The notes under the pieces were generated by a model. That model was not told the origin of the DNA. It made no database searches and saw nothing but the letters and a program-made list of their open reading frames with translations. A program made the translations under genes and the position numbers. DNA of 64,000 nt from Planctomycetota bacterium (GTDB lineage Bacteria > Planctomycetota > UBA8108 > SXIK01), in contig CBDCXR010000004.1 of assembly GCA_965223845.1 (NCBI GenBank), positions 1,568,001 through 1,632,000 on the forward strand, given 5' to 3'. Of this stretch, positions 2 through 24,604 are shown one piece after another; the stretch's first letter is position 1; each line of letters starts with the position of its first letter.

Positions 2-712
2 CCTTTCCGTCCCGCCGGACTCTCGGTCGAGGCCGACGCCGAAGCGGCGATCTCCGGTCGCCCCGCCGACACCGCGACGGCCGTTGGACTGGGACTCACT
101 CACTTGCGTCAGGCCGCAGGTGCCGAGGGGATCGAGGCGATCTCGATTCTTCCGGGCGAGTACGTTGAGAAGCGGACGTTCCGCGAGCGTACGGTGTTTC
201 TCTACGCAGCGGGAGCGATCCTCGTCTTGGTTCTCCTCGCCCGCCTTCTGCTCGGGGTCGTGCGGACGAGTGAGGCGAACTCCGTGTTCGCTCACAACCA
301 GTCCACGCTCACGGAGCTCCAGAGCATGCAGGCGGAGTACGCGGCGAACCGAACCGCCGAAGAAGCGTCTCGCAGTCGAATGAATCGTCTCCTAGCGGAG
401 GCCGAGCAATCTGCGTTTCAGGCGCTCCTCCTCGATTTTTTCGGGGCGCGGCTCCGACCGGAGCTGCAGCTCCAGCGCGCGTGGCTGGAGCCCGAGGAGT
501 CCTCGGAAGGGCAGATCGACTACGTCTTTCACGTCGAAGGTCGGGCGAACAACGAAAAGCGGCGCGCGTCGAGCTGGATCCGCGAGATGTTGAGCGACCT
601 CGAGAGCGAGGAGACCGTTCGCTCGGCCGCGCTCATCGAATCGGCGCCTGAGAAGGGTGGCAGCTGGTACAACTTCTCGGTCGCGATCCGACCGAACTAC
701 ATCCAGTACTGA
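2..712 (+). CDS. PilM-PilN fusion-like type IV pilus/T2SS assembly protein (5'-truncated by window edge)
   Basis: Frame is open from base 2. ...DTATAVGLGL resembles the PilM C-terminal AVAxGLAL, followed by ISILP (PilN INLLP-like), a TM helix, a coiled coil and a ferredoxin-like tail (FHVEGRA...YNFSVAIR). Confidence 0.7.
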   Translation, partial: PFRPAGLSVEADAEAAISGRPADTATAVGLGLTHLRQAAGAEGIEAISILPGEYVEKRTFRERTVFLYAAGAILVLVLLARLLLGVVRTSEANSVFAHNQSTLTELQSMQAEYAANRTAEEASRSRMNRLLAEAEQSAFQALLLDFFGARLRPELQLQRAWLEPEESSEGQIDYVFHVEGRANNEKRRASSWIREMLSDLESEETVRSAALIESAPEKGGSWYNFSVAIRPNYIQY

Positions 713-714
713 CG

Positions 715-1533
715 ATGAACGAGAGCAAGATCAAGAGGATCTGGGAGGAGAACAAGCGCTTCTTCCTCGTCGCAGGCGCAGGTCTGGCGGTGTTTCTCGG
801 ATTGAACGCGTGGATCTCTTCCTACCTCGCGGGCGCGGACGCCACGCTGCGAAAGGCGAGCGAGCTCGCCGAGCAGAGCCGAAAGCTCAAGCAAGAGCTA
901 AAGGGCGGTTACTGGGAGGTGCGCGGGCGCATCGACGACTACGCCGAGCTGGAGAAGCGTCTCCTTGGGGATCTCGCGGTGGCGCCGCTTTCCGAGGCGA
1001 GTCGACTCGACCAGAACGCGCTTCTCGTCGAGTTCAACGAGTCCATCGAAAAGGTCTGGGAAGACGCGCTCAAGATCGCGAATCGCCAAGGGGTCGAGCT
1101 GCCCGAGCGATTGAGCCCGGACGATTTTGGCTACGAGCCGTCGGACGACCTCACGGCGTTTCAACGGTACTACAAATACCTCGCGATCATTCGTCGGGCG
1201 ATGAATGCGATCCTCGAAGCGGACGTGCGTGAGCTCGGTCAGCCGGAGCTCATCGCCGAAGACGTTCATGCCATCGAAAATAATCCGGAGCGAGGTCTTC
1301 TTCTCCGTGTCGTTCGCTTCAGCACGCTCGCGTCGTACGACACGTACGTACGGCTCCTCAAGTCTGTGCAAACGCCGGGAGATTTTCTTCAGGTGCAGAT
1401 CCTGAGTCTCGCCGTCCCCAAGGGGGGAGACGGCAGCCTCCTTCGCGCCGACATGATCTTCGGCACCTGTGAGCTGACGACTGTCGAGCCGCGCGCGAGG
1501 GCCGGTACGCGCGTTCAATTCACTGGCGACTGA
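715..1533 (+). CDS. PilO/GspM-like inner-membrane platform protein
   Basis: N-terminal TM helix, coiled coil, C-terminal FSTLASYDTYVRLLKSV..FLQVQILSL resembling PilO; starts 2 bp after the PilN-like gene. Confidence 0.6.
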   Translation: MNESKIKRIWEENKRFFLVAGAGLAVFLGLNAWISSYLAGADATLRKASELAEQSRKLKQELKGGYWEVRGRIDDYAELEKRLLGDLAVAPLSEASRLDQNALLVEFNESIEKVWEDALKIANRQGVELPERLSPDDFGYEPSDDLTAFQRYYKYLAIIRRAMNAILEADVRELGQPELIAEDVHAIENNPERGLLLRVVRFSTLASYDTYVRLLKSVQTPGDFLQVQILSLAVPKGGDGSLLRADMIFGTCELTTVEPRARAGTRVQFTGD

Positions 1534-1551: not shown

Positions 1552-1923
1552 ATGAAGCTCAATCGTGAAGTTTGCGCCCTGATCCTAGCGCTCGCGATTC
1601 TGGCGATCGGCCTCCGCGAGATCGTCCCGGGGTTCTTCGCCCCGGCCGGGTCTGTGCAGCTCGTCGACGCGTCGATCCCGAAGGCACGGCGCGACGTCGT
1701 CCCGCGATCGATCCGTTCGCACGTCCGGGACGTCGAGCTCGCTCGCGATCCCTTCACGTTCAGCGAGGGGTGGCAGCGACTCGACGCCTTGCCACTCGAC
1801 CCGCCTCCCCTCCCGCCGGCGCCGCGTCCCTTGCCGCTCTTTTACGGTGCCGAGCGCGCGAGTGAGCGTCACGTCGAGTTCGCCGAACGTCGGATGATTC
1901 CGAAGCGGAAGGAGACCCCGTGA
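1552..1923 (+). CDS. Small membrane-anchored Pro-rich protein (PilP-position; RDPF motif)
   Basis: N-terminal hydrophobic helix, RDPF motif reminiscent of PilP/GspC linkers; stop overlaps next start (GTGA). Confidence 0.5.
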   Translation: MKLNREVCALILALAILAIGLREIVPGFFAPAGSVQLVDASIPKARRDVVPRSIRSHVRDVELARDPFTFSEGWQRLDALPLDPPPLPPAPRPLPLFYGAERASERHVEFAERRMIPKRKETP

Positions 1924-4385
1924 AGCTTCGAAGCGGCCGAGTTTGGTTGGGCGTCTGCGGACTCGTGACCGTTACCGGTCTCGCGCCGTTCCTCCGCGCG
2001 GACGTCGACGACGAGATTCGCCTGTTCGACACGCTCTTTCTCTCCGGTGGTCGCAAGATCGAGGGCACGATTCTGAGCGCCGGGGATCTCGAGACGGCAG
2101 AGAAGATTCTCGTCCAGACACGCTCGGGGCGCGGGCAGTTCGAGCTGGCGACGAAAGACATCGAGCGCATCGTCCGCCGCCGTACGGTGGAAGAGGTCTA
2201 CAAATCGAAGCAGGAGCGCGTTGCCGCCATCGGCGACGAGAGCGAGCGGGCGAACGCCTACGCCGAGCTCGCGCGTTGGTGCAGGGCACCGCGCATCGAG
2301 CTGGATGGTCAGCCGCCTCGGGCGGAGAAGGCGCTCGAGCATTTTCTCGCGGCGCTCGAGATCGATCCGACGCAGCGAGATCTCTACGCCTTCGTACTCG
2401 ACGAGCTTTCCGCCACGGGGAGCCTCGACGAAGCGAGCGCCGAGCGCATCGAAACTGAGTTGCTCGTGGCGGAGCTTGCGCAGCGCGGAGGACTCGATCT
2501 TCCGGAAGTCGTCTTTCGCCGCGGGTACATCATCGCGACTCACGGGCAATCCAAGAACAAAGCCGTCGCCGACTTCCGGCGAGTTCTCGCGAGCGACTAC
2601 GACAATCGCGCCCACCGCCGGACGGCCCGGAAGCTCCTCAGCGAGGCGCTCGTCGAAGCGGGAGATCGAGCTGGAGCGCGGCGGGTGTTCGAAGAGATCC
2701 TCGTCGAGCCGGCGACGGACCCGAGCAACTTCGAGGCGCTCTACGAGCTCGGGCGACTCAGTGCCGGTGACGCCGACCCCGCCGTGAGAGGGCGGGCGAA
2801 AGCTCTTCTCGAGCAGGCGCGCGCGATCCAGCCCGAGTTCGCGCCGATCTACGAGCTCCTCGGCGCGCTCGAGTTTGAATCCGGGAACCACCGCGACGCG
2901 ATGAAGCACCTCAAGGAGGCGATCGCAAAGGATCCGAGCCGCATCGGACCGCAGGTCAACCTCGCCGTCGTTCAAGCGGCCGGCGGCCTCCGATCGACGG
3001 CGACGAAATCGCTCGCGATGATCCTCGGGCAGTCGGCGGGAGCGGATCGCGCTGCGGCGCACGCCGCGCTCGGACGCATCAAGGAAGACGCCGGTGACCT
3101 CGCCGGTGCGATCACCGAGTATCGCGCGGCGGTCGCAGCCGATGAGTCGTTCGTCGACGCGCAGCTCGCACTCGGCGCGGCGCTCGCGCGTGCGGGTGAA
3201 GCCGACGAAGCTCGCCTTGTCGCGAGCGCACTTCTCACGGCGAACCGAGACGATCCCGGAGTCTTCGTCGCGGGAACTCGGATTCTTGCCGAAGCCGAGC
3301 TCGCGGCCGGACAGATCAGCACTGCCACGGCGCATCTCGAGCGTGCGCTCGCGCTCCGACCCGAGGACGCGCATTTGCGCGAGCGTCTCGGTCTCGTTCT
3401 CATCCGGCAGGGGAATCTGGACGAAGCCTACCGTCACCTCGGCGCGCTCGGTTCACTCGAGGAGCGTCCGTCTGCGCAGGCCGCACTCGGGTACTACCAC
3501 TACTCGCGGGGTGAGCTGGCGGAGGCGGCGATCCAGTTCAAGCTCGTCGAGAAGCTGACCCGCGCACAGAAAGCGAGCGACAAAAAAGACCGCGCGCGGA
3601 TGGCGCTGTTCGCGTACGCCCAGGCGAGTCTAGCGCAGCTGCGCGATCTCGCGGAGCTCGAGATTTGGCGGGCGGAGTTCGCGGGCGATGACGCACCGCG
3701 GGTGGATGGATGGACGGAAGTCGAGCGCTTCGGCATCGCGATTTCGCGCGCTGGCGGGCGGATGCTCTTCGCGGGAACTCAACGCGAAGAGGCGGACGGC
3801 GTCACGCTCGCCCAGCTCGATCGCACCGCCGAAAGCGCGTCATTTGATCGCGTGTCGATGCGCGGCGCGGTTCACAGCGGGCGCGTTCGCTTCGGTCTTC
3901 GGATGGAAGGCGAGACGCAGCGCGGTGCCTCGACGGGGATTCTCGTCCACCGCGACTTCGACGGAACCGTGCGGATTCTCGTGAAGGGCACGCGAGGGTC
4001 GTGGAAACCTCTCGAGCCGACCGAGCCGGAAGAGGAAGACGGCAAGGACGAAAGTAGCACGCGCCGGCGCACATCCCGCCGCGCTCTCGTCTACCCGGGG
4101 ACCGTTTCCTGGCCGAACGACTCCGCCTCCCGCCGGCTCGAGATTCGCCGGAGTCCGGAGCCGAAGCTCGGAACTTCCTCACGCGCGACCAAGGACACAT
4201 TCGACGTCGTGCTCGACGGTGAGAACGTCGCGAGCTTCGTTCCCGTGAGCGGCCTCTCACGCGCGAAGCTCCGATTCTCGATCTCGGCGCAGACCGACGC
4301 GGAGGGGAACGAATTCTCCGTTTCCGTCGACGAATTCCATCTCTACCGAAAGCAGCCACGGGCAAAGCGGCGTTCGCGCTATTAG
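1920..4385 (+). CDS. Exported TPR-repeat protein with C-terminal beta-sandwich domain
   Basis: RBS AAGGAG then GTG; signal peptide; DTLFLSGGRKIEGTI N-domain; many TPR-like helices (ALYELG, AHAALG, AQLALG, AQAALGYYHY). Confidence 0.75.
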   Translation: MKLRSGRVWLGVCGLVTVTGLAPFLRADVDDEIRLFDTLFLSGGRKIEGTILSAGDLETAEKILVQTRSGRGQFELATKDIERIVRRRTVEEVYKSKQERVAAIGDESERANAYAELARWCRAPRIELDGQPPRAEKALEHFLAALEIDPTQRDLYAFVLDELSATGSLDEASAERIETELLVAELAQRGGLDLPEVVFRRGYIIATHGQSKNKAVADFRRVLASDYDNRAHRRTARKLLSEALVEAGDRAGARRVFEEILVEPATDPSNFEALYELGRLSAGDADPAVRGRAKALLEQARAIQPEFAPIYELLGALEFESGNHRDAMKHLKEAIAKDPSRIGPQVNLAVVQAAGGLRSTATKSLAMILGQSAGADRAAAHAALGRIKEDAGDLAGAITEYRAAVAADESFVDAQLALGAALARAGEADEARLVASALLTANRDDPGVFVAGTRILAEAELAAGQISTATAHLERALALRPEDAHLRERLGLVLIRQGNLDEAYRHLGALGSLEERPSAQAALGYYHYSRGELAEAAIQFKLVEKLTRAQKASDKKDRARMALFAYAQASLAQLRDLAELEIWRAEFAGDDAPRVDGWTEVERFGIAISRAGGRMLFAGTQREEADGVTLAQLDRTAESASFDRVSMRGAVHSGRVRFGLRMEGETQRGASTGILVHRDFDGTVRILVKGTRGSWKPLEPTEPEEEDGKDESSTRRRTSRRALVYPGTVSWPNDSASRRLEIRRSPEPKLGTSSRATKDTFDVVLDGENVASFVPVSGLSRAKLRFSISAQTDAEGNEFSVSVDEFHLYRKQPRAKRRSRY

Positions 4386-4437: not shown

Positions 4438-5175
4438 ATGATGAGAACAACTGCTCTGTTTGCCGTTCGACATCAAGACGAGATCCCGCGGGTGGAAGCG
4501 GGATCGATCGCGCGACGGAGGCGTCGTGGAGATCGGTCTCGACGAGTGGCGGGTTTCACTTTGATCGAGATGCTAGTCGTCATCAGCATCATCTCGATCC
4601 TCATGGGGGTCGCGCTCGTGGGAATCAACTCCGCGCGGGAGGCCGGTGACTCGAGCGCCGTCGAGACCGACCTACAGTTCCTTCGCTCCGCGATCGAGAA
4701 ATTCAGCGTTGCGATGGGTGACTATCCGCCGACACGGCTGAGCGATCTCGATCCCAAGCTGAAGGGAAATCCCCTCAACGAAGGCAACGAGAGCCTCTTC
4801 GCGTGCCTCTTGTCGCGACGCGGCGGCGGTCCGCACGCCGAGCTCGCAGAGGACCGTTGGGAGAATCTCGACGGTGACTCGCTCACGACGGAACAGCTCG
4901 GCATCGTCAAGAAGGAGCTCGACTGGATTCGCGGGAACGGCAATCTACTCGAGTACTGCGATCTCTGGGGACAACCCTATATCTACTTTCACCACCGCGA
5001 CTACGGCACGGCTCGGCGCGTGCGTCTTGCGGACGGTTCGGAGGTCGAGGTCGCCGCGCAGAAGAATGCGCAGACAGGAACATATTTCGCACCGACGACG
5101 TTTCAGCTTTGGTCGATCGGACCGAACGGAATCAACGAAAACGGCGGAGGCGACGATCTCGTCTCGTGGCGATGA
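4438..5175 (+). CDS. Major pseudopilin GspG-like prepilin
   Basis: G|FTLIEMLVVISIISILMGV N-methylation motif; AIEKF...GDYPP; DLWGQPYIY; FQLWSIGPNG...DDL, all GspG C-terminal hallmarks. Confidence 0.85.
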   Translation: MMRTTALFAVRHQDEIPRVEAGSIARRRRRGDRSRRVAGFTLIEMLVVISIISILMGVALVGINSAREAGDSSAVETDLQFLRSAIEKFSVAMGDYPPTRLSDLDPKLKGNPLNEGNESLFACLLSRRGGGPHAELAEDRWENLDGDSLTTEQLGIVKKELDWIRGNGNLLEYCDLWGQPYIYFHHRDYGTARRVRLADGSEVEVAAQKNAQTGTYFAPTTFQLWSIGPNGINENGGGDDLVSWR

Positions 5176-5302: not shown

Positions 5303-6685
5303 ATGAGGCGGATCGACATCCGGACGCGAGCTCGGTCGAACCCCGAAGGGGGAACGCGCCACCGCCGCCATCGTGCGCGAGCGTTCGGCGCGGCGGCGGC
5401 GCTTCGACGACGATCCGTCGGATTCACGCTCGCCGAGCTCCTCACGGTCATCGGCATCGTCGCGATCATCGGCACCCTCGGAACGGGAGCGTTCCACGTT
5501 GCTCGCCGGAGCTACGCGCTCAACGCGACGGCAGGAGAGCTGCAGGCCGTATTGCGAGCGGCGCGAAACTCCGCGCTTCATGCGGGCAGCCCGGCGTTCG
5601 TCGTCGTAGACCCGGTCGAGAGAAGCGCGCGCGCCTACGTGTACGACCCGGTCGGTGAGTGGAGCTTCGACGAAACTCCGAACTCGTTCTCGGTTCGGCG
5701 CGAGAAGGAAGTTCGGACGAGCGCCGTATCGGGAAAGGTCGGACGGGGTCGATCGTTCGCGGGCGGTGGCCATATCGATTGCGGGAACTTACCGCAGTTT
5801 CAGCTTCGTGACTCGATTCTCATCGAGGCGTGGATCCGCCACCGCGAGTTCCGAACGATTCCCCCCGACCGCCGGGTGAAGGATCGACGCCGCCGCCTCG
5901 AGAGGCGACGAACGCCGGCGCGCGCGGCGCCCGACGCGTCCTTCGCGATCGTCGAGAAGGCCGGTGCCTACTCGCTTGCGCTTTCGAAGAAAGGGCGATT
6001 GCGCGGCTCGATCGGAAACTACACGGTCGAGACGACGGACGCCGTCGTTCCTCCCGGTCGCTGGATCTTCGTGAGCCTTAGGTACGACGGCGAGGAGATC
6101 GACCTTCGCTCCGAGGGCGTTCCGCGCCGTACGCGGCCGTTCGCGGGAGCTGCCGGACTAACGGGCCTCGGATCGATCGCCGGTGCGCGCTCCGAAGCGT
6201 CGAGCTCAACGCAGCCGGCTCGCGCGAGTGCGAAGTCGAAAGTCCCCAGCTTCGCCCCCGTCACGAGCGCTCCGCTGACGATTTCTTCGGCCACCTCTCC
6301 GTTCAACGGCGAAATCGACGAAGTGCGCGTGGCTGGATCTGTCGAGCCGGTCGAGTTCACGTGGTCGGATGGCGAGCTCATCCTCGGGTGGAAGAAGGTG
6401 ATTCGGTTCGATCGGCGCGGCCACCTCGACGGGCGGAGTCACGACGGCGAGGTGCGGCTTGTTCTCGTCGAGCTGCCCGACTTCGCATCACGCGGCACAA
6501 GCACGTCGGTGGTCGACTTCGGGGGAACGTTCGACGATTGGCGCGCACGATGGAAGGAGCCGCCGCCGGACCTCACCGAAGAAAACGAGGAGAGGAAGTT
6601 GCTCGCGGTGTACGCGAGCGCGCGGAAGATCGCGATCTCGATCGGACGGCTGGGCACGATTCGCTGGGAGGAGCTCGAGCCATGA
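5303..6685 (+). CDS. GspH/FimU-like minor pseudopilin with LamG (concanavalin A-like) domain, 460 aa
   Basis: G|FTLAELLTVIGIV; LRAARNSA; WSFDE, IEAWIR, WIFVSLRYDG and FNGEIDEVRV are LamG motifs; IRFDRRG. Confidence 0.8.
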   Translation: MRRIDIRTRARSNPEGGTRHRRHRARAFGAAAALRRRSVGFTLAELLTVIGIVAIIGTLGTGAFHVARRSYALNATAGELQAVLRAARNSALHAGSPAFVVVDPVERSARAYVYDPVGEWSFDETPNSFSVRREKEVRTSAVSGKVGRGRSFAGGGHIDCGNLPQFQLRDSILIEAWIRHREFRTIPPDRRVKDRRRRLERRRTPARAAPDASFAIVEKAGAYSLALSKKGRLRGSIGNYTVETTDAVVPPGRWIFVSLRYDGEEIDLRSEGVPRRTRPFAGAAGLTGLGSIAGARSEASSSTQPARASAKSKVPSFAPVTSAPLTISSATSPFNGEIDEVRVAGSVEPVEFTWSDGELILGWKKVIRFDRRGHLDGRSHDGEVRLVLVELPDFASRGTSTSVVDFGGTFDDWRARWKEPPPDLTEENEERKLLAVYASARKIAISIGRLGTIRWEELEP

Positions 6686-9600
6686 ACCGTGCGTGCTGCG
6701 AGGAACGACAAGTCTCGCCGGCGGAACGAGAGAGCTTCGACGCGCGCGGCGTAGCGCTCATCATGGTCCTTCTCGTCCTCACGACACTCGCCTTGCTCGG
6801 CGTTCCCTTCGTCGTTTCGATGACCCTTCAAGACCGTGAGAGCCATCACTTCGCGGGACGAGTGAGCGCGCGGCTCGCGGCCGAGGCGGCGAGGAATCAC
6901 GCGATCGCAAAGCTGCAGAACACTGTCTACTCGGTGGAATGGGAGCGAGAAGCGAACGCGCTCGAGCCCGAGCGCCCGAAGGGCAGTCGAAAGCGCGGCA
7001 CGACGGTCGGCCGGCGCCGGTTCGGAGCGGAGTCGAAGCTCGGCTCGCTCGATCGAGTGCGGAGAAACGTCGTCCGCGGCGATCTCGGGGAAACGAAGCG
7101 CCGGCTGAGCGACGGCCTCCGCCGCGCCGCGAGACTGCGGGGCGACGACGAGACCAACGAGAACCCGAACGCGCTCCCCGAATACATGCGGCTCTCCGAG
7201 AAGGGGCCGTCGGAGCGCGAGGTCGACTCGTCATCGGAGATCGAAACCGAACTGCCGGAGAAGATCCCGCTCCCGGCGCGAGCCGAGAGCACCAAGGGAC
7301 CTGCGGCAAAAAAACCTGCGAGTACTCGCACGACCGTCGGCCCGAGTCCGGCGGCGACCGTTAGCCTGCGCGGAGGCGTGTACGCCGACGCACGCGTGAC
7401 GGACGAACAAGGGAAGATCAATGTCAACACGGCGCCGCCGCCGGTCATCGCCGGCGTACTCGGCGTCTCGGAGCTCGCGTACGAGCTCGGGCCGGAGGAG
7501 ACCCGCCTTTCGCTCGTCGACGCGAGTGAGTTCCGCGGCGACCACGACGCCAAATCGATCGACGGAGCCGTCGTCCTCTGGGATCCAGGGGGCGGTGGGA
7601 TGGAGGTCGTGACCTATCGGCGAAAGATCGGTACGCGACTCGAGGATTGCTTCCGCGGTGCGTTTTTCTCGCTTCCCTTCCGCCGGGGTCGGTTCCGTGA
7701 AGGCACGATGGTGTTCGACCTTCGCGGCTGGAAGATCGCGTACCACCGTCTCTGGGCGCGACGGGAGGGAGGCTTCCATCCGGGTGACCTCACGCGGTTT
7801 CGGACGCTCGAGGAGCTGCGCGACATCGCGAACTGGCAGGTCGCGTCGCTCTTCTTGGGTCGTTTCAGCGGTCGCGGTCTCACCGCCGCGTTTCTTCGCG
7901 AGAACGGCATCAACGTCAAGAAGGTGAGTGAGCTCGGACTCGACCCCTTTCTCTTCGTCGACGAGGTCGAGACGGACGATCGAGAACGCAAGGCACGGCT
8001 TCGGACGGCGGAGCGAGAGCTCAGGCGGCTTCGATTCTCGGCGAATCTGGTGAAGCGACTGAAGAAAGCTCGCGGCGGCGACGTCGTCGTCGAGCTCGCG
8101 GCGCGACTGACCGGCGCGACAAGTGAAGACGTGAAGACGCTCGAGAAGGCCGTTGAACAATCACTTGCCGGCGGGAAACGCCAAGTGCCGAAATTTCCGC
8201 GCGGCTACGTCCGACGCTGCCTCGAAGATCTCGCCGCCGCATACAACACCGAGGGCATCGAAACGCTCCTTCCCGGCGACGTCGAGCGGCTCCGTCCGTA
8301 CCTCACTTGCCACTCGTGGGTACCGGTCACGTGGTCCGAGGGACAAGCCCTCCTCAGTGACCTCGTCGCCGGCGGAGACCAGGACGCACGCCTTCCGCGT
8401 GCGAGCGAATTCAACGCCGGAACGATCGTTCGCATTCGCAGCCGGAAGGATCCGACTTACCTCGAGTTCAATGAAGTGAGCTCGAGTGGGCCGAATGGCA
8501 TCACCCTCGCGTTTCCGGTTCGTCGCACGCTGCGGGCGTACGACGCGTATCTGCAGGCGCTTCAGCGCCACCCGGTGAACGTAAACACGGCTTCTCGGCG
8601 CGTCCTTCGGGCTGCGCTCGCGGGGTTGAAAGGAGAAGACAAGAAGGCCCGCGTCACGCTCTACGAAGCCGACGGAATCGCCGGACGGATCGTCGGCGCG
8701 CGGCCGCTCGACGGTTTCGCCGCCCTCTATCGGCTTTTCGACGAGGCCGGGGAGAACGACGACGCGCTCGACGACGAGGATGTCAAAGTCCTCCTCACGA
8801 ACGCAGTCCAGCCAACGCACGCTTCGCTCCGGGCGTCCTCGATCGGGTTCACGTTTCGAACGGGGGACGTCTACTCGATCGACTCCCGGGCCGTGGTCCG
8901 CGCGCCGAGCGGACGATCGGTGGCTCAGGTTCAGTTCCGAGATCTGTGGGAGGCGTCCGCACCCGGCACTCGCTCGATCGGGCTCCTCACGCAGAGGGAT
9001 TTCAGCGAAGGAAGCTACCTCGTCGACCCGCTCCTCGGCGGGCGATTTCCCGATTTTCATCACCGGTTCCTCCTCGCGTTCAGCGGAACGAGAGGGCGGT
9101 GGCTCGATTCGCGTCCGCTGGTTCTTCACCGGGCGCCGCGGCACTTTGCCGCCGGGGACTTGGGTAGCCTGCGGCTTCTTCACTCAGAGAGTGTGGAGGG
9201 ACCGCCCGGGTTCGTCATCGATCGGATCCAGCACTTCCGGGACACCTACGACGGCCTCGAGCTCGAGGCGGGCGAGCCGTACGCGATCGCGTTCGGCGCC
9301 GGTACGAGCGATCTTTCGACCGTTCCCGCGGGGATCGAGTTTTGGCTCCGCATGTCCACCTACCCGACCGAGCGCTCCGTCGACGGTCACATGGTGCTCT
9401 TCTCGACGGGGGACGATCCCGAGCGGAACCGCATCGCCCTCCTCTACGATCAACGTCGCGGCGCGTTTCTTCTTCGAGTCTACGACGCTTCGCTTCCCGA
9501 CCCGTCGATGCGGAGTGTCCGCGACGGAGGACCGTACCTGGAGATCTCCGCGTTCCGGCCACTCGAACTCGAGACGTGGTACCAGATCCGCGCGGTCTGG

Positions 9601-12600
9601 GACGGGACCTACGGTGGTGGGTGTCAGCTTTTCATCGACGGAGTGCCCGCGGGCGAAAACAACCTCTCGGCCGAGCTGATCAGCGCGATCCCCGCGCCGG
9701 GCGAGCGCGACGCGCGGGCGACGTCGCTCGCGGTTCGCAACGGCGAGCGCTTTCCGCGCGAGGGGGCCGTCGTCCTCGGGGGCGAGATCTTCGAGTACGT
9801 ACGAAGCGGAAACTCGCTTCAGATTCGGCGCGAGCCGAAGTCTTCGTGGCAGCTCCAGCCCGACAAGCTGAACGACGCGATCCCCGCGCTCGGAAACCGG
9901 GCGCCGCGGCTCTGGTACCGCGATCTCGATGCGGTGAAGATCGGTCCCGGCGGCGGGCGAATTCCGGCGCCACCGGACGAAGACCGTCCGCGCGGGAGCG
10001 GGGGCACGGGCGGTAGCGGCGGGACCGGAGGACGGGGGAAGCGCGAGGGCGAGCCGTCCCTCACGGCGAAGGCACTCGGGCAGACGGTACCTCCCGGCGG
10101 AGGGGGAGCGGGACCCCGCGGTCCCGGAGGAACCGGGCCCGGCGGCGGCCTACCCGGCGGCGGGGGGCCGGGGGCCACACTTCCCCTCGATCGAGTCGAC
10201 GTCATGCGAGGTCCGTGGAACCGGCGCGGATCGACCGGTGCGGCGCACGGCGCCGGGACGCAGGTGTCCCTCCACGGTTACTCTCTCAAAATCCGGCGTA
10301 AGCTCCGCCGATCGAACGGCGAAGAAGCCCAGACGGACGGACTGGTCTGGGGGCGCGGAGGGCGTCAGCTCGGCGACCCGCTCCCCGCGTTCCATTTCCC
10401 TCCTGGCACGCACACGATCCTTCACTACGAGATCGGACCCGGTGAGGTGGGGCCGAGCCAAGAGCGATATCTGATTCCGCTCTTTCACCTCGACGACGCC
10501 GCGGGGTTTTGGGACGACTCGTTTCTCGGTGGATACGGCTCGAGCCACGCGATGGGCAATCTGAGCGTCGCGCTTCCGGGAGCGGCCGGGCGCGTCGCCT
10601 CGGACTACTACCAGAGCCGGGGAATCGTGCTCGTGTCGAACGTCCCGGAGTTCGAGTTCGAGATCGTGGGGAACGGCAGTGCGATCATGACTTGGAGCTC
10701 GAGCGGATCGTTCCCGCTCTTCTATGAGAAGGTGCCGCTTCCGCCTCAGTACGCACAGGCACTCGGCGCTGATCCGCAGGTGCAAGTGAACGGCTCCATC
10801 ATGGCGCTCAAGATCGTCGGCGGGTATGCGGGAAGTCAAGCCGACGGCACCGGCGCGACGGCGTACGACCGCATCCTCACGAAGACCTGGCAGGCGGTTC
10901 AGGAAGCGGAGAAGTTCCTCGCGCAGTTTCCCGGGCAGTCGGGAAAGCTGCGTTGGCGTTTCGGTTACCCCGTGGTCCAGCGGAGCCTGATGGCTGACGG
11001 CTCGATTTCCGACCGCTACCCGCCGACCGGGATCCTTGAGCTGCGCGGAACGCCTGCGCCGTGGGAAACGTGGCGACGGGGGTCAGCGGGGCAGTCGGTG
11101 TTCGGCCGGCACCCGGAAGATGTCGTCGAATGGATTCGGTACGTCGACATCACGCCGCATCCGAGCGGCGGAGAGCTCTTCGTCGGGCGTATTTCGCGCC
11201 GTAGCAACTTTCGCGGCTATCCCGAACGCGATCTCGAGCTGAAGCGGCAGCTCGATCACGAACGAAGCGAGCCGCTGCGACTCGTCATGGAGCTCTCCGA
11301 GGGCGGCGCCGGTTACGGCGACTACGTCACGATCGCGACGAACGATCCGCTCAAGTACGAACCGAAAATCTACCGCGTGTTCAAATCGTTCGAGCACACC
11401 GACGGCAGATTCTTCGTCTCGCTCTACGAGACGAACTCAGCCGGTCAAGACATTCCGTCCGCGATCCAGGCGTTTCGCTACGACTACACCGCCGAAGAGA
11501 ATCCGCGGCTGGTTAAGTTCCCTTCGTGGACCCTACCTCAGATCGGGACGGGGACACTCACGTTTTTCTCCGAAGGGCAGGCGGCTTCTTCGTCGATTCG
11601 TCGCCGAACGGGCAGCAGTGTCCGCAATCGTCGCCAGCGGCGGAGCGAGGACGAGCCGACGGGAATCACGATCGACGAGATCAAGCGTTACTACAATCCT
11701 AGCGTGCCGTCGAGCCAGGCCGGCGGTTCGAGCGTTCGTTTCGTCGTGGCGCCGCTTCCGCTCCGGCTGGAGCGATCCGGCAGCAACCGGGCGATGGTCT
11801 CGGGATCGATTCCCGCGGGAAAGGCGATCACTCCATCGAGTCCGCTCGAGGTGCTCGTTGTCTCGCGGAGCACGGGAGGCGTCGTTCTGTTCGCCCAAGG
11901 CCAGAAGGAGGGCCTCCTTCGCATCGGCGACGAGCTCTTCTACTGGGAAGATCCGCGCGGCGATGGCGGCGAAGGGACGACTCAGGGAGTCGGAGGGCAG
12001 GGAGGTCAAGGGGGCCAGGGCGGGCAGGCCGGAGGGGGACGACTCACCGGGATTCGTCGCCCGACGAGCAACCCGAATCAAAACCAGAATCAGCAGAACA
12101 CGATTCAGCTCTACCGGAACGAACGCGACCCGCTGGCGCGTATGCTCGTGATCCCGCGAGTCACGGCATCGGTGAGTGGTCACTTCGAGCCGGAGGGATT
12201 TGCGCGGATTCAAGGCAATGACGCGGAGATCTCGCGCTTTTACGAGACGTTCTACTACAACCGATTTGGTGGGGGGAGCTTTTCGAATTGCCTCGGCGGG
12301 CAGTTCAACACTCCGCTCCTTCTTCAGAGCTCGAAGCTCCATCGCGGCGCGCCCATCGTCAACGTCACGCGGCGGATCCGCCTCGTCGCGCGGAGTCTTC
12401 TCGGCACCGAGCGCCGCACGCACTCGCTCGGGGACGCGGTGTCCTTCGTCCCCTACGTCCGTGCGAGCCCGATCAGCGGCCCGATGACGCACGATGGAAT
12501 TCGACTGAAGCGCGCGGAGCTGTTTCCCTCCCCGGGCTACCTCATTCTCGATGGCGGGCACCCGACCGCGCCCTGGGAGATCGCGGCTCATCTCGGGGCG

Positions 12601-13167
12601 CGAGGCGAGGGAGTGCTCGCGCGACCGCGCAGCGAGACGGGTGAAGGGATCTTCCGCGCCGCCTTCGGTACGCCGCAGCGTCCCCTCTCCCGCGACCACA
12701 TCGCGATCGAGCTCCCCTTTCGCTATCCCGACCGCTACCAAGGTGGGATCGACAGCGAGGAGCTCGCGTACTTGCAGAAGAGTTACCGCATCCCGGGGGC
12801 GCGTTGGCGCGCGCTCGAATGGCGGGAGCGAGAAACGGACCTGCGCGACCGTCTCGTCGACCTCGTCGTCGTCGCTCGCTTCGACGGCGCGCCCGAGTGG
12901 GACGCGGAGATCACGAACGAACCGGGCGGACTCTATCTCTTCGAGGACAAGAGCCGGAGTCGCCGGGAAGACCCTCGCTTCGAGCTCGACCGCTTCGCCG
13001 ACGAGATGGAGATTCGCGTCTACTTCCGGTACCGCCCCGGGGCCTACCGCCGAGTGAACGAGGACGTGTGGTCGAACGATTGGAAACAGACTCCGATCCT
13101 CGATTTCCTCAAGATCGAGTACGAGAAGGCAGGAACGAATTTGCGCCATGAGATCCTTCCCTTCTGA
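6682..13167 (+). CDS. Giant GspK/PilX-like pseudopilin, 2161 aa, with LamG domain and repeated beta modules
   Basis: ATGA overlap with upstream stop; G|VALIMVLLVL (no Glu5, as in GspK/PilX); ARLAAEAA; DEQGKINVNTA and PVNVNTA GspK motifs; LamG IEFWLR...WYQIRAVWDG...LFIDG. Confidence 0.8.
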   Translation: MNRACCEERQVSPAERESFDARGVALIMVLLVLTTLALLGVPFVVSMTLQDRESHHFAGRVSARLAAEAARNHAIAKLQNTVYSVEWEREANALEPERPKGSRKRGTTVGRRRFGAESKLGSLDRVRRNVVRGDLGETKRRLSDGLRRAARLRGDDETNENPNALPEYMRLSEKGPSEREVDSSSEIETELPEKIPLPARAESTKGPAAKKPASTRTTVGPSPAATVSLRGGVYADARVTDEQGKINVNTAPPPVIAGVLGVSELAYELGPEETRLSLVDASEFRGDHDAKSIDGAVVLWDPGGGGMEVVTYRRKIGTRLEDCFRGAFFSLPFRRGRFREGTMVFDLRGWKIAYHRLWARREGGFHPGDLTRFRTLEELRDIANWQVASLFLGRFSGRGLTAAFLRENGINVKKVSELGLDPFLFVDEVETDDRERKARLRTAERELRRLRFSANLVKRLKKARGGDVVVELAARLTGATSEDVKTLEKAVEQSLAGGKRQVPKFPRGYVRRCLEDLAAAYNTEGIETLLPGDVERLRPYLTCHSWVPVTWSEGQALLSDLVAGGDQDARLPRASEFNAGTIVRIRSRKDPTYLEFNEVSSSGPNGITLAFPVRRTLRAYDAYLQALQRHPVNVNTASRRVLRAALAGLKGEDKKARVTLYEADGIAGRIVGARPLDGFAALYRLFDEAGENDDALDDEDVKVLLTNAVQPTHASLRASSIGFTFRTGDVYSIDSRAVVRAPSGRSVAQVQFRDLWEASAPGTRSIGLLTQRDFSEGSYLVDPLLGGRFPDFHHRFLLAFSGTRGRWLDSRPLVLHRAPRHFAAGDLGSLRLLHSESVEGPPGFVIDRIQHFRDTYDGLELEAGEPYAIAFGAGTSDLSTVPAGIEFWLRMSTYPTERSVDGHMVLFSTGDDPERNRIALLYDQRRGAFLLRVYDASLPDPSMRSVRDGGPYLEISAFRPLELETWYQIRAVWDGTYGGGCQLFIDGVPAGENNLSAELISAIPAPGERDARATSLAVRNGERFPREGAVVLGGEIFEYVRSGNSLQIRREPKSSWQLQPDKLNDAIPALGNRAPRLWYRDLDAVKIGPGGGRIPAPPDEDRPRGSGGTGGSGGTGGRGKREGEPSLTAKALGQTVPPGGGGAGPRGPGGTGPGGGLPGGGGPGATLPLDRVDVMRGPWNRRGSTGAAHGAGTQVSLHGYSLKIRRKLRRSNGEEAQTDGLVWGRGGRQLGDPLPAFHFPPGTHTILHYEIGPGEVGPSQERYLIPLFHLDDAAGFWDDSFLGGYGSSHAMGNLSVALPGAAGRVASDYYQSRGIVLVSNVPEFEFEIVGNGSAIMTWSSSGSFPLFYEKVPLPPQYAQALGADPQVQVNGSIMALKIVGGYAGSQADGTGATAYDRILTKTWQAVQEAEKFLAQFPGQSGKLRWRFGYPVVQRSLMADGSISDRYPPTGILELRGTPAPWETWRRGSAGQSVFGRHPEDVVEWIRYVDITPHPSGGELFVGRISRRSNFRGYPERDLELKRQLDHERSEPLRLVMELSEGGAGYGDYVTIATNDPLKYEPKIYRVFKSFEHTDGRFFVSLYETNSAGQDIPSAIQAFRYDYTAEENPRLVKFPSWTLPQIGTGTLTFFSEGQAASSSIRRRTGSSVRNRRQRRSEDEPTGITIDEIKRYYNPSVPSSQAGGSSVRFVVAPLPLRLERSGSNRAMVSGSIPAGKAITPSSPLEVLVVSRSTGGVVLFAQGQKEGLLRIGDELFYWEDPRGDGGEGTTQGVGGQGGQGGQGGQAGGGRLTGIRRPTSNPNQNQNQQNTIQLYRNERDPLARMLVIPRVTASVSGHFEPEGFARIQGNDAEISRFYETFYYNRFGGGSFSNCLGGQFNTPLLLQSSKLHRGAPIVNVTRRIRLVARSLLGTERRTHSLGDAVSFVPYVRASPISGPMTHDGIRLKRAELFPSPGYLILDGGHPTAPWEIAAHLGARGEGVLARPRSETGEGIFRAAFGTPQRPLSRDHIAIELPFRYPDRYQGGIDSEELAYLQKSYRIPGARWRALEWRERETDLRDRLVDLVVVARFDGAPEWDAEITNEPGGLYLFEDKSRSRREDPRFELDRFADEMEIRVYFRYRPGAYRRVNEDVWSNDWKQTPILDFLKIEYEKAGTNLRHEILPF

Positions 13168-14560
13168 CGCCGCCGCCGCGCGGCGGCGGAGGAGCGATCT
13201 CGGCGACCAGCGAAGCTTGGCGTGGTCGACTCCCGACGGCTCGACGTCGCAGCGGCTGCCTGGCTGCCGTTCGGCCGGTTACACGCTCATGGAGATCATC
13301 GTCGCGACGGGGCTCCTCGTCGCGCTCGGCGGGGGACTTGTGACTCTGCTCCGGGAGGGCGTGGGGATTTGGGAAACCGCGAGTGAGCGAGGCCGCGTGT
13401 ACGAGGAGGCGCGGGCGGTGCTCGACCTCATCACCGAGGACCTTCGGTCGACGGCGATTCGCGCGCACAGCTCGGCGGACGATTCGTGGATACGCTTCCT
13501 CGCGGATGCGGTTTCGCCCGAAACTCACGGCAAGCAGAAGTCGGAGTTCCGTGCCGTGCAGCGCCTTCGCTTCGTGCGGACGACAGGCGGTGAGATGGCC
13601 GACCCGATTCTCCGTCACGGAGGGAAGAAGCTCGCATCGCGCACTCCGCTTTACTACGACGGGTCGCCGCTCTCGGGGGCCGCGGAATCCGGACTTCTTC
13701 GTCCGGCGGCCGGGACGATGGAAGTTCTCTACATGCTCGATCCGCGTCAGGATTCACGCACTTTGTGGCGTGCGGTGCGAGCGCCGGTCGGAGGGGCGGA
13801 CTCTCTCTTCATCGACGCCAACGTCGCTCCCCCGCTAAAGGCCGTTACGCCGCCGAAGGCTCCGGCGAAACCCGCGGGCAGCGCAGCGACGAGCGCGACG
13901 GATCCCACGGCCAAGACGACGGCCCCGCCGCCCGCGCCGCCGCCGTTCTACTTGAGCCGCTTCGCGACGCCGGTCTCGGAACAGGTCCTCTATGTCGGCT
14001 TTCGTTTCTGGACTCGCAGCACGACGACGTGGGCGGAAACGGAGAGCACGAGCGCTCGAGCCGCGACCGTAGCCGTGGGGCCGAGCTGGTACTGGGACTC
14101 GACTCGCGCGCTTCTTCGACCGAAGTCGAGAACGCGAACGACGAGGACGGGATCCGTCGAGGACGCGAGCGACGACGTCTTTCCGGAGTTCGTCGAGGTC
14201 ACGCTCGCCCTCGAGCCGAAGGAAGAGGTGCTCGGCCCTCGGCTCACGGCGCCGATGACGGCACAAGATTCGACGATTCAGCTGTCGACGCCGCTCGATC
14301 TCCCGGAACGCGCCGGCGGAAACTACGTCCTCGTGGGGAACGAGTGGATCGCGGTCGAGCGCCTGTCGGGATCGACCCTCGCAGTGCGGAAAGGCGGACG
14401 CGGCGTGCGCGGCTCCACGCCATCGGCGCATTCGCGCGGGACCCGCGTCCGGAGCGGGATCGAGTTCCGGCGAGTGGTCGCCATTCCGAGCTACCGCACT
14501 GGGTCGGAGCCGCCGAAATCGACGCGACGCACGCTGCGAAAGCGAGGACGGGGACGATGA
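13148..14560 (+). CDS. GspJ/PilW-like minor pseudopilin
   Basis: G|YTLMEIIVATGLLVAL; ARAVLDLITEDLRS; EVLY; TLWR; FPEFVEVTL, GspJ-like architecture. Confidence 0.8.
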   Translation: MRSFPSDAAAARRRRSDLGDQRSLAWSTPDGSTSQRLPGCRSAGYTLMEIIVATGLLVALGGGLVTLLREGVGIWETASERGRVYEEARAVLDLITEDLRSTAIRAHSSADDSWIRFLADAVSPETHGKQKSEFRAVQRLRFVRTTGGEMADPILRHGGKKLASRTPLYYDGSPLSGAAESGLLRPAAGTMEVLYMLDPRQDSRTLWRAVRAPVGGADSLFIDANVAPPLKAVTPPKAPAKPAGSAATSATDPTAKTTAPPPAPPPFYLSRFATPVSEQVLYVGFRFWTRSTTTWAETESTSARAATVAVGPSWYWDSTRALLRPKSRTRTTRTGSVEDASDDVFPEFVEVTLALEPKEEVLGPRLTAPMTAQDSTIQLSTPLDLPERAGGNYVLVGNEWIAVERLSGSTLAVRKGGRGVRGSTPSAHSRGTRVRSGIEFRRVVAIPSYRTGSEPPKSTRRTLRKRGRGR

Positions 14561-14994
14561 TCGCCGTGACGCGTCGATTCGGAGGTTTCACCGGGTCACA
14601 GGGCTTCTCGCTTCTCGAAGTGCTGATCGCCATGTTCGTGCTCTCGGTCGGAGCGGCGAGTGTGATCTCGCTCTTCGCCGCCGGCTCGTCGACGCACCGC
14701 CGCTCCGTCGATCGTACGCGCGCGGCACTCGTCGCGGAGCAGGTCATCGCCGAGGCTGCGATCGCCTATGTCCCGGGCCGCACGGCGGCCGAGATTCCGG
14801 GAGTCGTTCAAGGCCGGCTCCCCGCCGTGATCGACGGCTACCGATTCGACCTGACGGTAGCGCATCCCCAGGGAAAAGAGTGGCAGCCGTCCGAGCTCGT
14901 CGTCCACGTCGCCGTGCGCTGGCAGGAGAGTGGTCAAGCGCGAGCCGAGACGTTCACGACGATCCTCCTTCCGCGCGCGCCGGCGATTCGCTGA
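14557..14994 (+). CDS. GspI/PilV-like minor pseudopilin, 145 aa
   Basis: ATGA overlap; G|FSLLEVLIAMFVLSVG; VHVAVRW C-terminal strand. Confidence 0.8.
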   Translation: MIAVTRRFGGFTGSQGFSLLEVLIAMFVLSVGAASVISLFAAGSSTHRRSVDRTRAALVAEQVIAEAAIAYVPGRTAAEIPGVVQGRLPAVIDGYRFDLTVAHPQGKEWQPSELVVHVAVRWQESGQARAETFTTILLPRAPAIR

Positions 14995-21321: not shown

Positions 21322-24300
21322 CTAGCAGCTCACGTAGCGATCACAACCGAGCGAGCTCTCCGGGTCTTCGTCGGGCCCGCATTCGAGGTGACCGGGTGTC
21401 ACCGGCGGATCGCCGTCTCCGAAGAGGAAGTTGAGCAGATAGATCGGGTCGGCGACGTTGAACGCGCTGTCTCCGTTCACGTCCATCGCCTCCGGGCAAA
21501 CCTGGAGCGGCGCGTCACCAAAGAGATGGTTCAGAGACCCGATCGCATCGGCGATGTTCGCAGATCCCGAGTCGTTCGGATCGCCTCGTCTGAAGCGGAG
21601 CTCGGTCTCTTCCGTCGTGCCGGACACGCGAACGTTCGTGATCGCCCACCAGCCGGCGGCCGGAGCGCTGCGATAGTGAAACGCGAAGGCGACGCCGTCC
21701 TGACCGTCCGCGGCGGGAACGGGAAGGGCGCGCGTGGCAAAGAAGGGCTCCTCCCGGCTGTCGAAAAGGCCACCGCCGGCGTAGGAGAAGAGCGGCCGGT
21801 CGAGGAAGGTCTCGCCGCCGTCGACGCTGAGAAGCACCCTCTCGACCGCGGCTTCGGAGGCGAGCACCTCGGAGTCGAAGTGGAGAGTCACGCCGACGAC
21901 GTCCGAGCAGTCGATCGCCGGAGTGATGAGAAACTCGTCGAAGGGGTTCAGCCCGTCGCACTCGGCGTCGACGAGCGCGAAGCTCTGTCCGATGCGATTG
22001 ATCCCCTGCTCGCTGATCCCTTCCGGAATCTGGCGAAAACAGAGATCTTCTGCGGCCCATCGACCGTCGTCGCCGTCGGCGTGGATCGACAACCACTCGT
22101 CCGGAACGCCGTCCTCGAACGTCTCGTTCGGGAGCACGTCTTCCTCTCCGCCCGGTGGACCGCGCGTCGACACGACGACGTTGTCGATCGCAATCCACCA
22201 GTCATCGTCCGGTTCGAACTGGCGGATGCGAACGAGAAACGGCCCTCCCGGCGCGAAGTCCGAAAGGTCGACGTGGAGGCGACCGAAGTACCCGTCGGTG
22301 TTCTCGTTCGACGGCTCGGGAACGGCTCCGCCGCGGGCGGGGGCTACGCGACGAAACGCGTTCTCCCACGTCTCCCCCGCGTCGGAGGAGACGTCGATAT
22401 CGAACACGACGAAGCCATTGTTGTTGAGCTGCGCCGAGCAGTCGAGCTGAAGCCACACCGAATCGACGCCGGTGGCATCGATCGACGGAGTCCAAAGATC
22501 GTGCGACATTCCGCTCCCGGTCGAGTCCGTGCCGCCCGACCAGTCCGAGTCAGAGATCATGAAGGCTCCTTGGCTCGGAGTGCCGTCGAGCACGGGGGGA
22601 TTTGCGCGTCCACCTGGATTCGTCACGGTCCAGCGGGATCCGGTTTCGTTCGGCTCGTTCACTTCGAGAACACGCCAGCCGGCCGCGGTGACGTCCTCGT
22701 CCGATTCGAAACAGTCGAAGTTCTCCGCGAAGAGAACTCCATCTCCCGGAACGGCGGCGAAGTATTCCAGCGCGGAGGTGCACGACGAGCCGCCGCTGAC
22801 GTCGACCTGATAGACGTATTGACCGCCGCGAGGCGAATCTTCGAAGCTCGAGGCTTCGAGCGGCAGGGTTGCGACGACCTCTCCGCCTCGCCGCACGCGC
22901 ACCGCCTCTCCGGCGAGGTTCGCTCCGGGTTCCCATTCGAGCCGAAGCGCGCCGCCCTGAACGCAGCCGCGAATCTCCGCCGGACAGACGAAAGCGGAGA
23001 CGGGAGGGGCTTCGCAAGTGAAGTCGACGGCTCCCCCGACGATCGTCTCGAGCGAGTAGGTGATCGTACTGCCGGGTGGTGGGGCCGCGTGAGTGAACGA
23101 CCGAACTTCCGCGGCGAGCTCTCCACTCAGATCGACGCCGTCCGCTAGGACGCGATAGGCCGCGTCGCCCGGAAGTCCCCGCCACGTCATCGAGATCGAA
23201 TTCGAGGTCGCGTCGTACGCCTCCACTTCGAACGCTTGAGAAGCGCAGGTTCGAGCATCGATCTCCCCGTCGGCGGAGATCACGACATCGTCGATCGCCA
23301 CCCACCCGGGAGTCGCGGACGGCGCGTACAAGAATCCGATCGAGACGGTCGACTGCCCTTCTGCCCCCTCGAGGCGAAATGCCCGTTCCGCGTAGAACGG
23401 ATCCTCGTCTCCCGCGCCGCCGTAGACGCTCGTGTCGAAGGAAAAAATGGGCTCCTCGAACGTGGCGCCGCCGTCGTAGCTGACGGCGACTTCGTACGTC
23501 GTCGGCGAGTCCGTGCCGCGGATTTCCTCCTTCCAGCTCACATAGACGGCAGTTGCGTTCGTTGCGTCAACGGCGGGAGAGATCAAACGATCATTCACGA
23601 TCGCCGTCGAGCAGGCGGGATCGATCAGAGCGAAGTCACCGTGGATCCGGTGCATGCGGCGGCCGTCGTCGCCGTCGGGGAACGTGCCACCGTTGAACGC
23701 GATGAGGTTCCGCGTGCAAGCGTCGTTCGAAGTCCAGGAGTTGTCTCCCTCGTTGCCCGGCTCCGAGACGATCGTCCAGGTGGAAGGGATGCCTCCCGTG
23801 AACGAGGCACTGAGAAGAGGGACCTCTCCGCCGAGCGGCGGCGGAACGTCGTCGACGAGAACGTTGTCCACCGCGATCCACCACTCGTCGTCCGGCTCGA
23901 ACTGCCGGATGCGAAAGCGGGCGTTTTCCGTATTCGCGGCCACGGACGAAAGGTCGACGTGGAGTCGCCCGTGAAACCCATTGCAGTTCTCGGTGCTCAC
24001 GGTCGGAGCGAACGCGGTCCGTGCCGGCGCCACCCGGCGAAAAAGATTCGTCCAAGTCTCGCCGTCGTCGCTCGAGGCGTCGATGTCAAATACGCCGAGT
24101 CCGTTGTTATTGAGGATGGCCGTGCAGTCGAAGTGGAGCCAGACGACATCGCTTCCGATGGTATCGAAGGGTGGGCTCCATAGGTCGTGCGACATTCCCG
24201 AGCCCTGCTCGTCGGCGCTCCCGGACGCGTCCGAATCGGAGATCATGAACTGCGAGAACTCCCCCGGGATTCCCGAAGCGTCGGGTGGATTCGGGCGAGC

Positions 24301-24504
24301 ACCGATGTTCGTGATGGTCCACTTCGATCCGGTCTCGAGAGGTTCGTTCTCTTCGACGAGCCTCCACTCGCCGATATCTTCGACTTCGAAGTCGTCGAGG
24401 TAGGACTCGAAGTCCTCCTCGAGGAAGATCGCTTGCGCGACGAGGGGACTAGACGATACGAACGTAGAGAAGAACACCACGAGGACTTGATCGATACGAC
24501 TCAT
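21322..24504 (-). CDS. Secreted multidomain protein: duplicated beta-sandwich (MAM/cleaved-adhesin-like) pairs, two Fn3-like domains, C-terminal dockerin-like domain
   Basis: Signal peptide; EDFE...WWIAVDNV domains duplicated; FRRGDPNDSG...DVNGD dockerin-like Ca loops. Confidence 0.8.
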   Translation of the reverse strand: MSRIDQVLVVFFSTFVSSSPLVAQAIFLEEDFESYLDDFEVEDIGEWRLVEENEPLETGSKWTITNIGARPNPPDASGIPGEFSQFMISDSDASGSADEQGSGMSHDLWSPPFDTIGSDVVWLHFDCTAILNNNGLGVFDIDASSDDGETWTNLFRRVAPARTAFAPTVSTENCNGFHGRLHVDLSSVAANTENARFRIRQFEPDDEWWIAVDNVLVDDVPPPLGGEVPLLSASFTGGIPSTWTIVSEPGNEGDNSWTSNDACTRNLIAFNGGTFPDGDDGRRMHRIHGDFALIDPACSTAIVNDRLISPAVDATNATAVYVSWKEEIRGTDSPTTYEVAVSYDGGATFEEPIFSFDTSVYGGAGDEDPFYAERAFRLEGAEGQSTVSIGFLYAPSATPGWVAIDDVVISADGEIDARTCASQAFEVEAYDATSNSISMTWRGLPGDAAYRVLADGVDLSGELAAEVRSFTHAAPPPGSTITYSLETIVGGAVDFTCEAPPVSAFVCPAEIRGCVQGGALRLEWEPGANLAGEAVRVRRGGEVVATLPLEASSFEDSPRGGQYVYQVDVSGGSSCTSALEYFAAVPGDGVLFAENFDCFESDEDVTAAGWRVLEVNEPNETGSRWTVTNPGGRANPPVLDGTPSQGAFMISDSDWSGGTDSTGSGMSHDLWTPSIDATGVDSVWLQLDCSAQLNNNGFVVFDIDVSSDAGETWENAFRRVAPARGGAVPEPSNENTDGYFGRLHVDLSDFAPGGPFLVRIRQFEPDDDWWIAIDNVVVSTRGPPGGEEDVLPNETFEDGVPDEWLSIHADGDDGRWAAEDLCFRQIPEGISEQGINRIGQSFALVDAECDGLNPFDEFLITPAIDCSDVVGVTLHFDSEVLASEAAVERVLLSVDGGETFLDRPLFSYAGGGLFDSREEPFFATRALPVPAADGQDGVAFAFHYRSAPAAGWWAITNVRVSGTTEETELRFRRGDPNDSGSANIADAIGSLNHLFGDAPLQVCPEAMDVNGDSAFNVADPIYLLNFLFGDGDPPVTPGHLECGPDEDPESSLGCDRYVSC

Positions 24505-24604
24505 GGCCGCGCCCTCCATCCCAACTGAGTACCGAGCCGATCGTGCACTCCGTGCGGCAGCGCGAGCCGCCGGCTGGTCCGTACACCTGTTTCCAGGCTA
24601 CCTC

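Follow-up and report, generated by a model that had tools for sequence, protein, structure and literature searches.

A repeated, predicted beta-barrel module homologous to phage tail proteins in a giant cap-type pilin of a Planctomycetota bacterium

Tip pilins of modular build reportedly include Streptococcus sanguinis PilB and Thermus ComZ. The addition of lectin modules to tip pilins is an established design (PMC8179133), as in S. sanguinis PilC, which joins a pilin module to a ConA-like lectin module. Another described group is that of the apical minor pseudopilins GspK/XcpX of type II secretion (PDB 3CI0 and 5VTM; NF037980, PF03934), where K-type subunits are without Glu5 and are taken to be the most apical ones (PMC13533445). 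Here we describe a relative of these proteins in a Planctomycetota bacterium, encoded in a stretch of 64,000 nucleotides (GenBank assembly GCA_965223845.1, contig CBDCXR010000004.1, positions 1,568,001 to 1,632,000; "the window" denotes this whole stretch). On its forward strand lie the genes for K, a cap pilin of the GspK/PilX type with 2161 aa (6682..13167), and for J, a J-type minor pilin of 470 aa in which Glu5 is present (13148..14560). As detected with profiles, K holds seven copies of one module and J holds one; the module is homologous in sequence to phage tail proteins and is predicted to fold as a small beta-barrel. We give a probability of about one half to the reading in which K, encoded with the H-, J- and I-type pilins, caps a type IV filament, the barrel inserts being rigid spacers in a large head at the tip, from which a laminin-G domain would be offered to outside surfaces.

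K resembles GspK in the pilin and alpha-domain fold of a modelled homologue, in having H-, I- and J-type pilins alongside and in the loss of Glu5, which is absent from all 38 K homologues that could be read at this position; its N-terminus consists of a class III signal (G/VALIM) and a hydrophobic helix (PilX_N, E 0.055). It differs in being about seven times longer, in carrying barrels inside the core, in its appended laminin-G and C-terminal domains and in the pilM-like gene upstream, and it scores 34.4 bits against the GspK equivalog NF037980, for which the cut-off is 130. The modelled homologue is a compact one (L063, 25% identical to K; 1200 residues, mean pLDDT 82.1, pTM 0.57), without the eighth barrel position, R8, and without the C-terminal domain. 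Its residues 1-469 match the GspK fold despite containing positions R1 and R2 (3ci0_K, Z 14.2, rmsd 3.4, 226 aligned; 5vtm_X is also matched at Z 14.2), and the model supplies its own last pilin strands and a T2SS-type (type II secretion system) alpha-domain. Family profiles and this fold match make K and J minor pilins of the K-type and J-type, respectively, in keeping with the pilus tip named in the preliminary description.

K shares the lectin superfamily of PilC, but in contrast to the modular tip pilins its laminin-G domain is split and its nested barrels number seven to nine, with J and H being modular too, and its 2161 aa compare with 860 aa for the protein called the most extreme multi-domain case in PMC8179133. 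The Verru_Chthon cassette protein A (TIGR02600), which belongs to a cassette with four pilins, is similar in being K-like and very large, with K matching that model in the N-terminal 59 positions alone (18.8 bits; cut-off 332.3). With the barrel insertion domains of phages there is likeness in motif, in predicted fold and in the use as an insertion, whereas here the barrel sits on a cellular pilin and in many position-specific copies. A search of the open-licence literature, supplements aside, found no study of this protein.

Within this genome alone the repeat is undetectable, since a BLASTP self-comparison of K and J gave nothing significant (best K-J E-values 0.32-1.5, no off-diagonal K-K match) and a DNA repeat search found no meaningful DNA repeat underlying the copies; it becomes clear once profiles of homologues are used. 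A hidden Markov model (HMM) made from the modules of J homologues found 59 domains with at least 10 bits out of the 182 that it listed for 41 K proteins, the best score on reversed K being 0 bits. Single segments were scored, unspliced and with 200 shuffles each, against a profile (A1) of 71 clean copies picked from 90 full-length matches. The preliminary description had proposed seven copies in K and one in J, and all eight stretches fall inside these genes and in frame, except that the one beginning at 11001 is two bases off frame. Six of the seven in K scored higher than every shuffle: 7468-7713 (R1, 38.2 bits), 9670-10266 (R3, 26.6 bits), 11001-11280 (R5, 4.2 bits, rising to 18.5 bits with its insert removed), 11800-12442 (R7, 22.3 bits unspliced and 32.2 bits spliced), 12166-12360 (R8, about 14.8-14.9 bits) and 12466-12710 (R9, 14.9 bits). 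The J copy was likewise recovered, with 49.9 bits against a profile built without J. The remaining proposal, 8344-8530 (R2), fell away, as segment 8344-8565 had merely 2.7 bits, a score reached by 6 of 200 shuffles, and its position gave at least 10 bits in none of 37 homologues. Conversely, a copy that had been overlooked, R4 (about 10393-10977, aa ~1238-1432), was found via homologue profiles: the copy in the window scores -1.0 bits by itself (39 of 200 shuffles as high), but 26 of 39 homologues have at least 10 bits there. To judge from its sequence, R4 is decayed in this genome, and it is assigned by orthology.

The same division appears in HHalign, where the J module pairs with R1, R3, R4, R5, R7, R8 and R9 at 90-99%, with R2 at 2-3% and with a further position, R6, at 0%; across comparisons R2 stays at 2-22%. 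Unrelated and reversed controls gave at most 4%, barring one pair at 94% that consists of two overlapping segments. Some true copies pair poorly with each other (R4-R5 3-6%, R4-R7 1%, R5-R7 2-15%), though all have at least 90% against J. In a leave-one-position-out test the true copies had forward medians of 18-45 bits, R2 and R6 had medians near 0, and no reversed score reached 7; R6 gave at least 10 bits in none of 39 homologues. R2 and R6 were rejected as sequence-level copies; they are look-alikes without the RG..GT..H loop, resembling the barrel in the strand pattern of the L063 model alone, and R2 is at most a distant sibling of the module. For 261 of 266 copies the nearest neighbour is the same position in another genome, in segments cut by shared alignment columns, which biases toward such neighbours; the duplications are therefore old and the copies not homogenised.

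The preliminary description took the module for a stalk or assembly module, but a tandem stalk is not what is found: the module behaves as an insertion domain, which sits inside the GspK and laminin-G domains and is in part nested. R1 (7462..7719; HHalign 99% to J) is inserted in the GspK core, followed by the unconfirmed R2 (8338..8565), which has the same strand pattern in the model. Next comes the N-terminal part of a laminin-G/ConA-like domain (9166..9657; mapped from the L063 model, VIA Z 14.9 to 1pz7_A with 152 aligned). In the model the laminin-G match spans 528..1035 with about 150 residues aligned; therefore the domain is predicted to be split, with R3-R6 inserted, and its closing strands (..ITIDEIKRY) would lie at 11548..11697, the laminin-G alignments ending at model positions 1034-1040. 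Within the split, R3 (9664..10275) is itself interrupted by a Gly/Pro-rich insert (9829-10203) of 125 aa with 42% Gly+Pro, where the other 39 of 40 homologues have 4-65 aa. Two orphan strand-plus-bridge segments follow (10276..10389; DSSP, model residues 739-747 and 752-758), then the degenerate and here heavily inserted R4 (10393..10977; HHalign 90-99% to J or A1; model residues 761-845 with Z 11.0 to Chi 8vjh_A), R5 (10975..11280; HHalign 97-99%) and R6 (11281..11520), which shares with R2 the missing RG loop and the status of an unconfirmed copy. In sequence order R5 and R6 are each missing a first strand of their own and the two spare segments precede R4, so that these could be the first strands of R6 and R5, which would make an arm with R4 inside R5 inside R6.

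Beyond the laminin-G domain lie R7 (11827..12450), R8 (12157..12369) and R9 (12460..12720; HHalign 98%), and then a C-terminal domain (12721..13164) that is conserved among homologues and had no match in a Pfam search. The insert in R7 is short, 10-23 aa, in 16 of 39 homologues; in the other 23 it extends to 100-155 aa and holds R8, and it is from the comparison of short-insert with R8-bearing long-insert homologues that R8 is seen to be nested in R7; it is restricted to certain lineages, being present in 23 of 41 K proteins. The J copy (14237..14458) stands just before the last conserved strand of J and alone is predicted as a six-stranded beta-barrel (pLDDT 96.7), whose strand pattern recurs in the L063 model at R1, R2, R3, R4, R7 and R9. 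A second giant GspK-like protein of the same genome (C4:223332-227084 in contig coordinates, a 1251-codon ORF) has kept the K core and gave no match in the barrel search; no pilin genes neighbour it in a rough list of open reading frames (ORFs). Because the number of barrels varies, their loops accommodate inserts as long as 155 aa and this paralogue gave no barrel match, we regard the barrels as add-on modules on a scaffold.

That a similar module occurs in phage virion or tail proteins had been suggested in the preliminary description, and it is borne out both in sequence, the HMM retrieving phage tail and baseplate families, and in predicted fold. With 71 copies searched against PHROG at E of 0.1 or lower (best 8e-10), phrog_4406 (virion structural) was matched by 35, phrog_1101 (tail) by 30, the window's J copy having E 7e-7, and phrog_2885 (baseplate wedge) by 24. 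The profile also matches solved structures, namely Chi 8vjh_A (E 0.001) and JBD30 8rk3_o (E 0.0025), with the E..RG..T..H motif aligned, and tblastn with one homologue copy (L049) hit 54 of 50,697 phage records, among them pelagiphage tail tube B (45%) and the cyanophage gp7 wedge. In Pfam no barrel copy reaches a family cut-off; Rcc01698_C (PF23666) is matched at E of 0.1 or lower by 6 of the 71, at best with 0.0088. As to fold, VIA matches of the J model include Chi 8vjh_A (Z 9.4), GP4 8jov_1 (9.0), VP1 9in6_M (8.9) and JBD30 8rk3_o (8.7), followed by the K1 lyase 7w1c_A (7.5), lambda gpJ (7.3) and the R4C megatron (6.9); the best have Z 8.7-9.4 with an rmsd of 1.9-2.5 over 68-71 residues, and R4 reaches Z 10.5-11.0. 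The J model also matched 18 viral models at E of 0.001 or lower, and Foldseek found no match at that threshold in the PDB. In the ESM Atlas the clusters nearest to the J copy are unnamed, mostly viral and below the recognition threshold, and serve as a lead only.

The conserved residues bear on a function proposed in the preliminary description, namely contact between J and K; here this would mean that the J barrel docks on a K barrel or on the K core as the module's main job. The J barrel is present in 34 of 35 J homologues, with E, W, R, R and H invariant or nearly so, and the two genes are adjacent in nearly all loci, all of which speaks for such a contact. However, phage copies, for which neither J nor K exists as a partner, likewise conserve the E, W/Y and RG..GT....H, and these residues therefore look like determinants of the fold; one J barrel cannot explain seven to nine modules in K, mostly distant from the pilin core, and the known GspK-I-J complexes assemble via pilin folds, according to PMC13533445. 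We consider docking as the main function to be improbable.

In the solved phage structures considered next the barrel is an insertion domain. In the hub of JBD30 a small six-stranded barrel is in contact with an adjacent domain and has a stabilising effect on the baseplate (PMC11445458), and the matched region of JBD30, residues 482-556, presumably is this domain VI barrel. The R4C megatron match to the J model falls within the fibre-binding domain at residues 1131-1447 (PMC10276861; RcGTA counterpart in PMC7296036), and lambda gpJ has an insert at 483-569 (PMC10721106). In tailspikes the inserted barrel deepens the sugar groove, and its mutation in KP34gp57 lowers activity (PMC5701251, PMC10653864).

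The tailspike case raises the alternative that the barrels themselves bind, forming an array of weak glycan-binding domains that would give the tip avidity. In LKA1 gp49 and KP34gp57 a similar barrel completes the substrate groove and barrel mutations lower activity, Foldseek lists 4ru5/4ru4 at TM 0.61-0.68, the K1 lyase is among the fold matches given above, and every copy in K is conserved by position. Against this, these matches are weaker (E 0.04-0.15) than those to structural tail-hub and capsid inserts, the tailspike barrel works solely beside a beta-helix, hub proteins that are not enzymes have the conserved motif as well, and the R4 copy of this genome is decayed. A binding array is, in our opinion, rather unlikely.

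The preliminary description was correct in that the module is common to pilus tips and phages, but it is not specific to phages. The barrel profile matches 19,864 clusters, and among the best 150 of these matches 80 have the K core and 70 do not, the latter including surface proteins of bacteria, a multihaem cytochrome and further pilins. Pfam families were found in 8 of 17 core-free proteins scanned, these being tail collar, peptidase S74 (in two), YHYH, FG-GAP, Kelch, PilX_N and multihaem cytochrome. As the barrel is widespread in cellular proteins, a phage-specific origin was rejected as unsupported. Four proteins of 4,900-5,800 aa (P0016, P0017, P0018, P0020) have up to 29 barrel-matched stretches, and several barrels each are carried by six pilin-like proteins outside the K family, one recognised by PilX_N (P0091) and five by their N-termini, by eye (P0028, P0085, P0099, P0134, P0149). 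Elsewhere in the genome studied here, a 1624-codon ORF (L071, C4:1090236-1095107) encodes an unrelated surface protein that is rich in glycine, seems lipoprotein-like and has one barrel of about 20 bits. Of 151 sampled genomes of the phylum 120 contain the module, mostly with three to seven matches. Near-complete genomes of one family, f10 (G061, G100, G125, G146, G163, G194), have just 1-2 barrel matches; they probably lack the K/J pattern.

The K and J genes belong to a run of genes on the + strand, headed by a pilM-like gene whose start lies ahead of the window (C4:1566913; PF11104 above cut-off at C4:1567081-1568097). There follow a gene we call PilN-like by its position (104..712; weak NF045709 match, E 0.0014), a putative PilO-like gene (715..1533; position kept in 27 of 41 loci, no match in family searches), a 123-aa membrane-anchored ORF (1552..1923; 17 loci, no match in family searches), a TPR protein (1920..4385; Pfam TPR families, 32 loci), a G-type pilin (4438..5175; N_methyl E 1e-8, TIGR01710 E 9e-11 but below cut-off, 34 loci) and an H-type minor pilin with a laminin-G domain (5303..6685; PF13385 E 3e-6, GspH-type matches, 36 loci), in which the barrel profile found no match. 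After K and J (the latter in 35 loci) comes an I-type minor pilin (14557..14994; TIGR01707 E 6e-8 below cut-off, PilV E 2e-7, 33 loci). Counting the laminin-G domain of H, additional modules are present on three of the four minor pilins. K was matched in 80 of 101 related genomes, its own included, and the 41 loci compared are this one and those of 40 of the 79 other genomes; several of them end at contig ends, and the order pilM-N-O-TPR-G-H-K-J-I is kept wherever the contigs reach. Two close K homologues (P0008, P0009) carry Planctomycetes/Planctomycetota source names.

As for the machinery, type IVa components are represented by PilM in the cluster and by a pilD-pilT-pilB-pilC group about 25 kb upstream, in which family searches identified PilT and PilB, while PilD and PilC were recognised by reading the ORFs. 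Neither a secretin nor an ATPase is encoded in the cluster itself, the genome having 8 secretin matches elsewhere. A search for PilY1 gave no match in the genome, but none in the controls either. The genome as a whole is rich in type IV filament genes, with matches to 8 secretins, 5 PilB-type proteins, 5 PilT, 5 PilM and 24 N-methyl proteins. Elsewhere in the window, on the - strand, a secreted protein of 1065 aa is encoded at 21322-24519; it is duplicated internally and its C-terminus is presumably dockerin-like.

One may also consider that the cluster encodes the tip of a type II secretion pseudopilus, periplasmic in location, whose barrels dock large cargo or gate the secretin. The T2SS-type alpha-domain of K and its own last pilin strands would fit this, and G, H, I and J score best against Gsp-type models. 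Yet it is a pilM-like gene that heads the cluster and a pilD-pilT-pilB-pilC group that lies upstream, a head of about 235 kDa far exceeds GspK, and both the laminin-G domains in K and H and the hosts of the barrel, which are virions and surface proteins, point outward. We find the secretion alternative unlikely.

The filament-cap reading, for which even odds were given above, assumes the following. By analogy with GspK, K would be incorporated first, together with I and J, and would thereby take an apical position. The barrels, having their ends close together and loops that tolerate long inserts, could serve as stackable spacers, and these would build a large head at the filament tip, bearing the lectin-like laminin-G domain. 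This domain would in turn bind external surfaces through a ligand still at the level of inference. Several points weigh against this reading. With a pTM of 0.57 and 25% identity, the L063 model leaves the relative placement of domains uncertain; the fold matches to solved barrels cover the J copy and R4 only; adding the donated first strands brought no gain in profile score for R5 or R6; and the tailspike barrel shapes a sugar-binding groove, which favours a direct role in binding. Since the cluster lacks a secretin and an ATPase in a genome with 8 secretins and 5 PilB-type proteins, the exposure of K at the surface is inferred.

A bolder version can be imagined, in which a planctomycete ancestor equipped a retractile pilus with a recognition head resembling a phage tail. 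The nested barrels would then be articulated arms branching off the split lectin domain, docking or presenting receptor-binding parts with which these mostly uncultured bacteria could catch particles or other cells. The docking of such parts is proposed by analogy with baseplates resembling those of gene transfer agents, where tail fibres are attached through this region of the barrel; we hold this scenario to be doubtful.

It should be kept in mind that modules grafted on a tip pilin are already known, and that a phage origin of the barrel is so far unsupported, which limits the surprise. Nevertheless, the locus represents a conserved and apparently unstudied tip complex across much of a bacterial phylum, and its barrel is a very common extracellular domain, without a Pfam model at cut-off in spite of its 19,864 clusters, that is common to phage tails and pilus tips. 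Should the head be an adhesin, K would test the upper limit of cap size on a type IV filament, and would offer a protein target for studying the attachment of uncultured planctomycetes to particles or cells.

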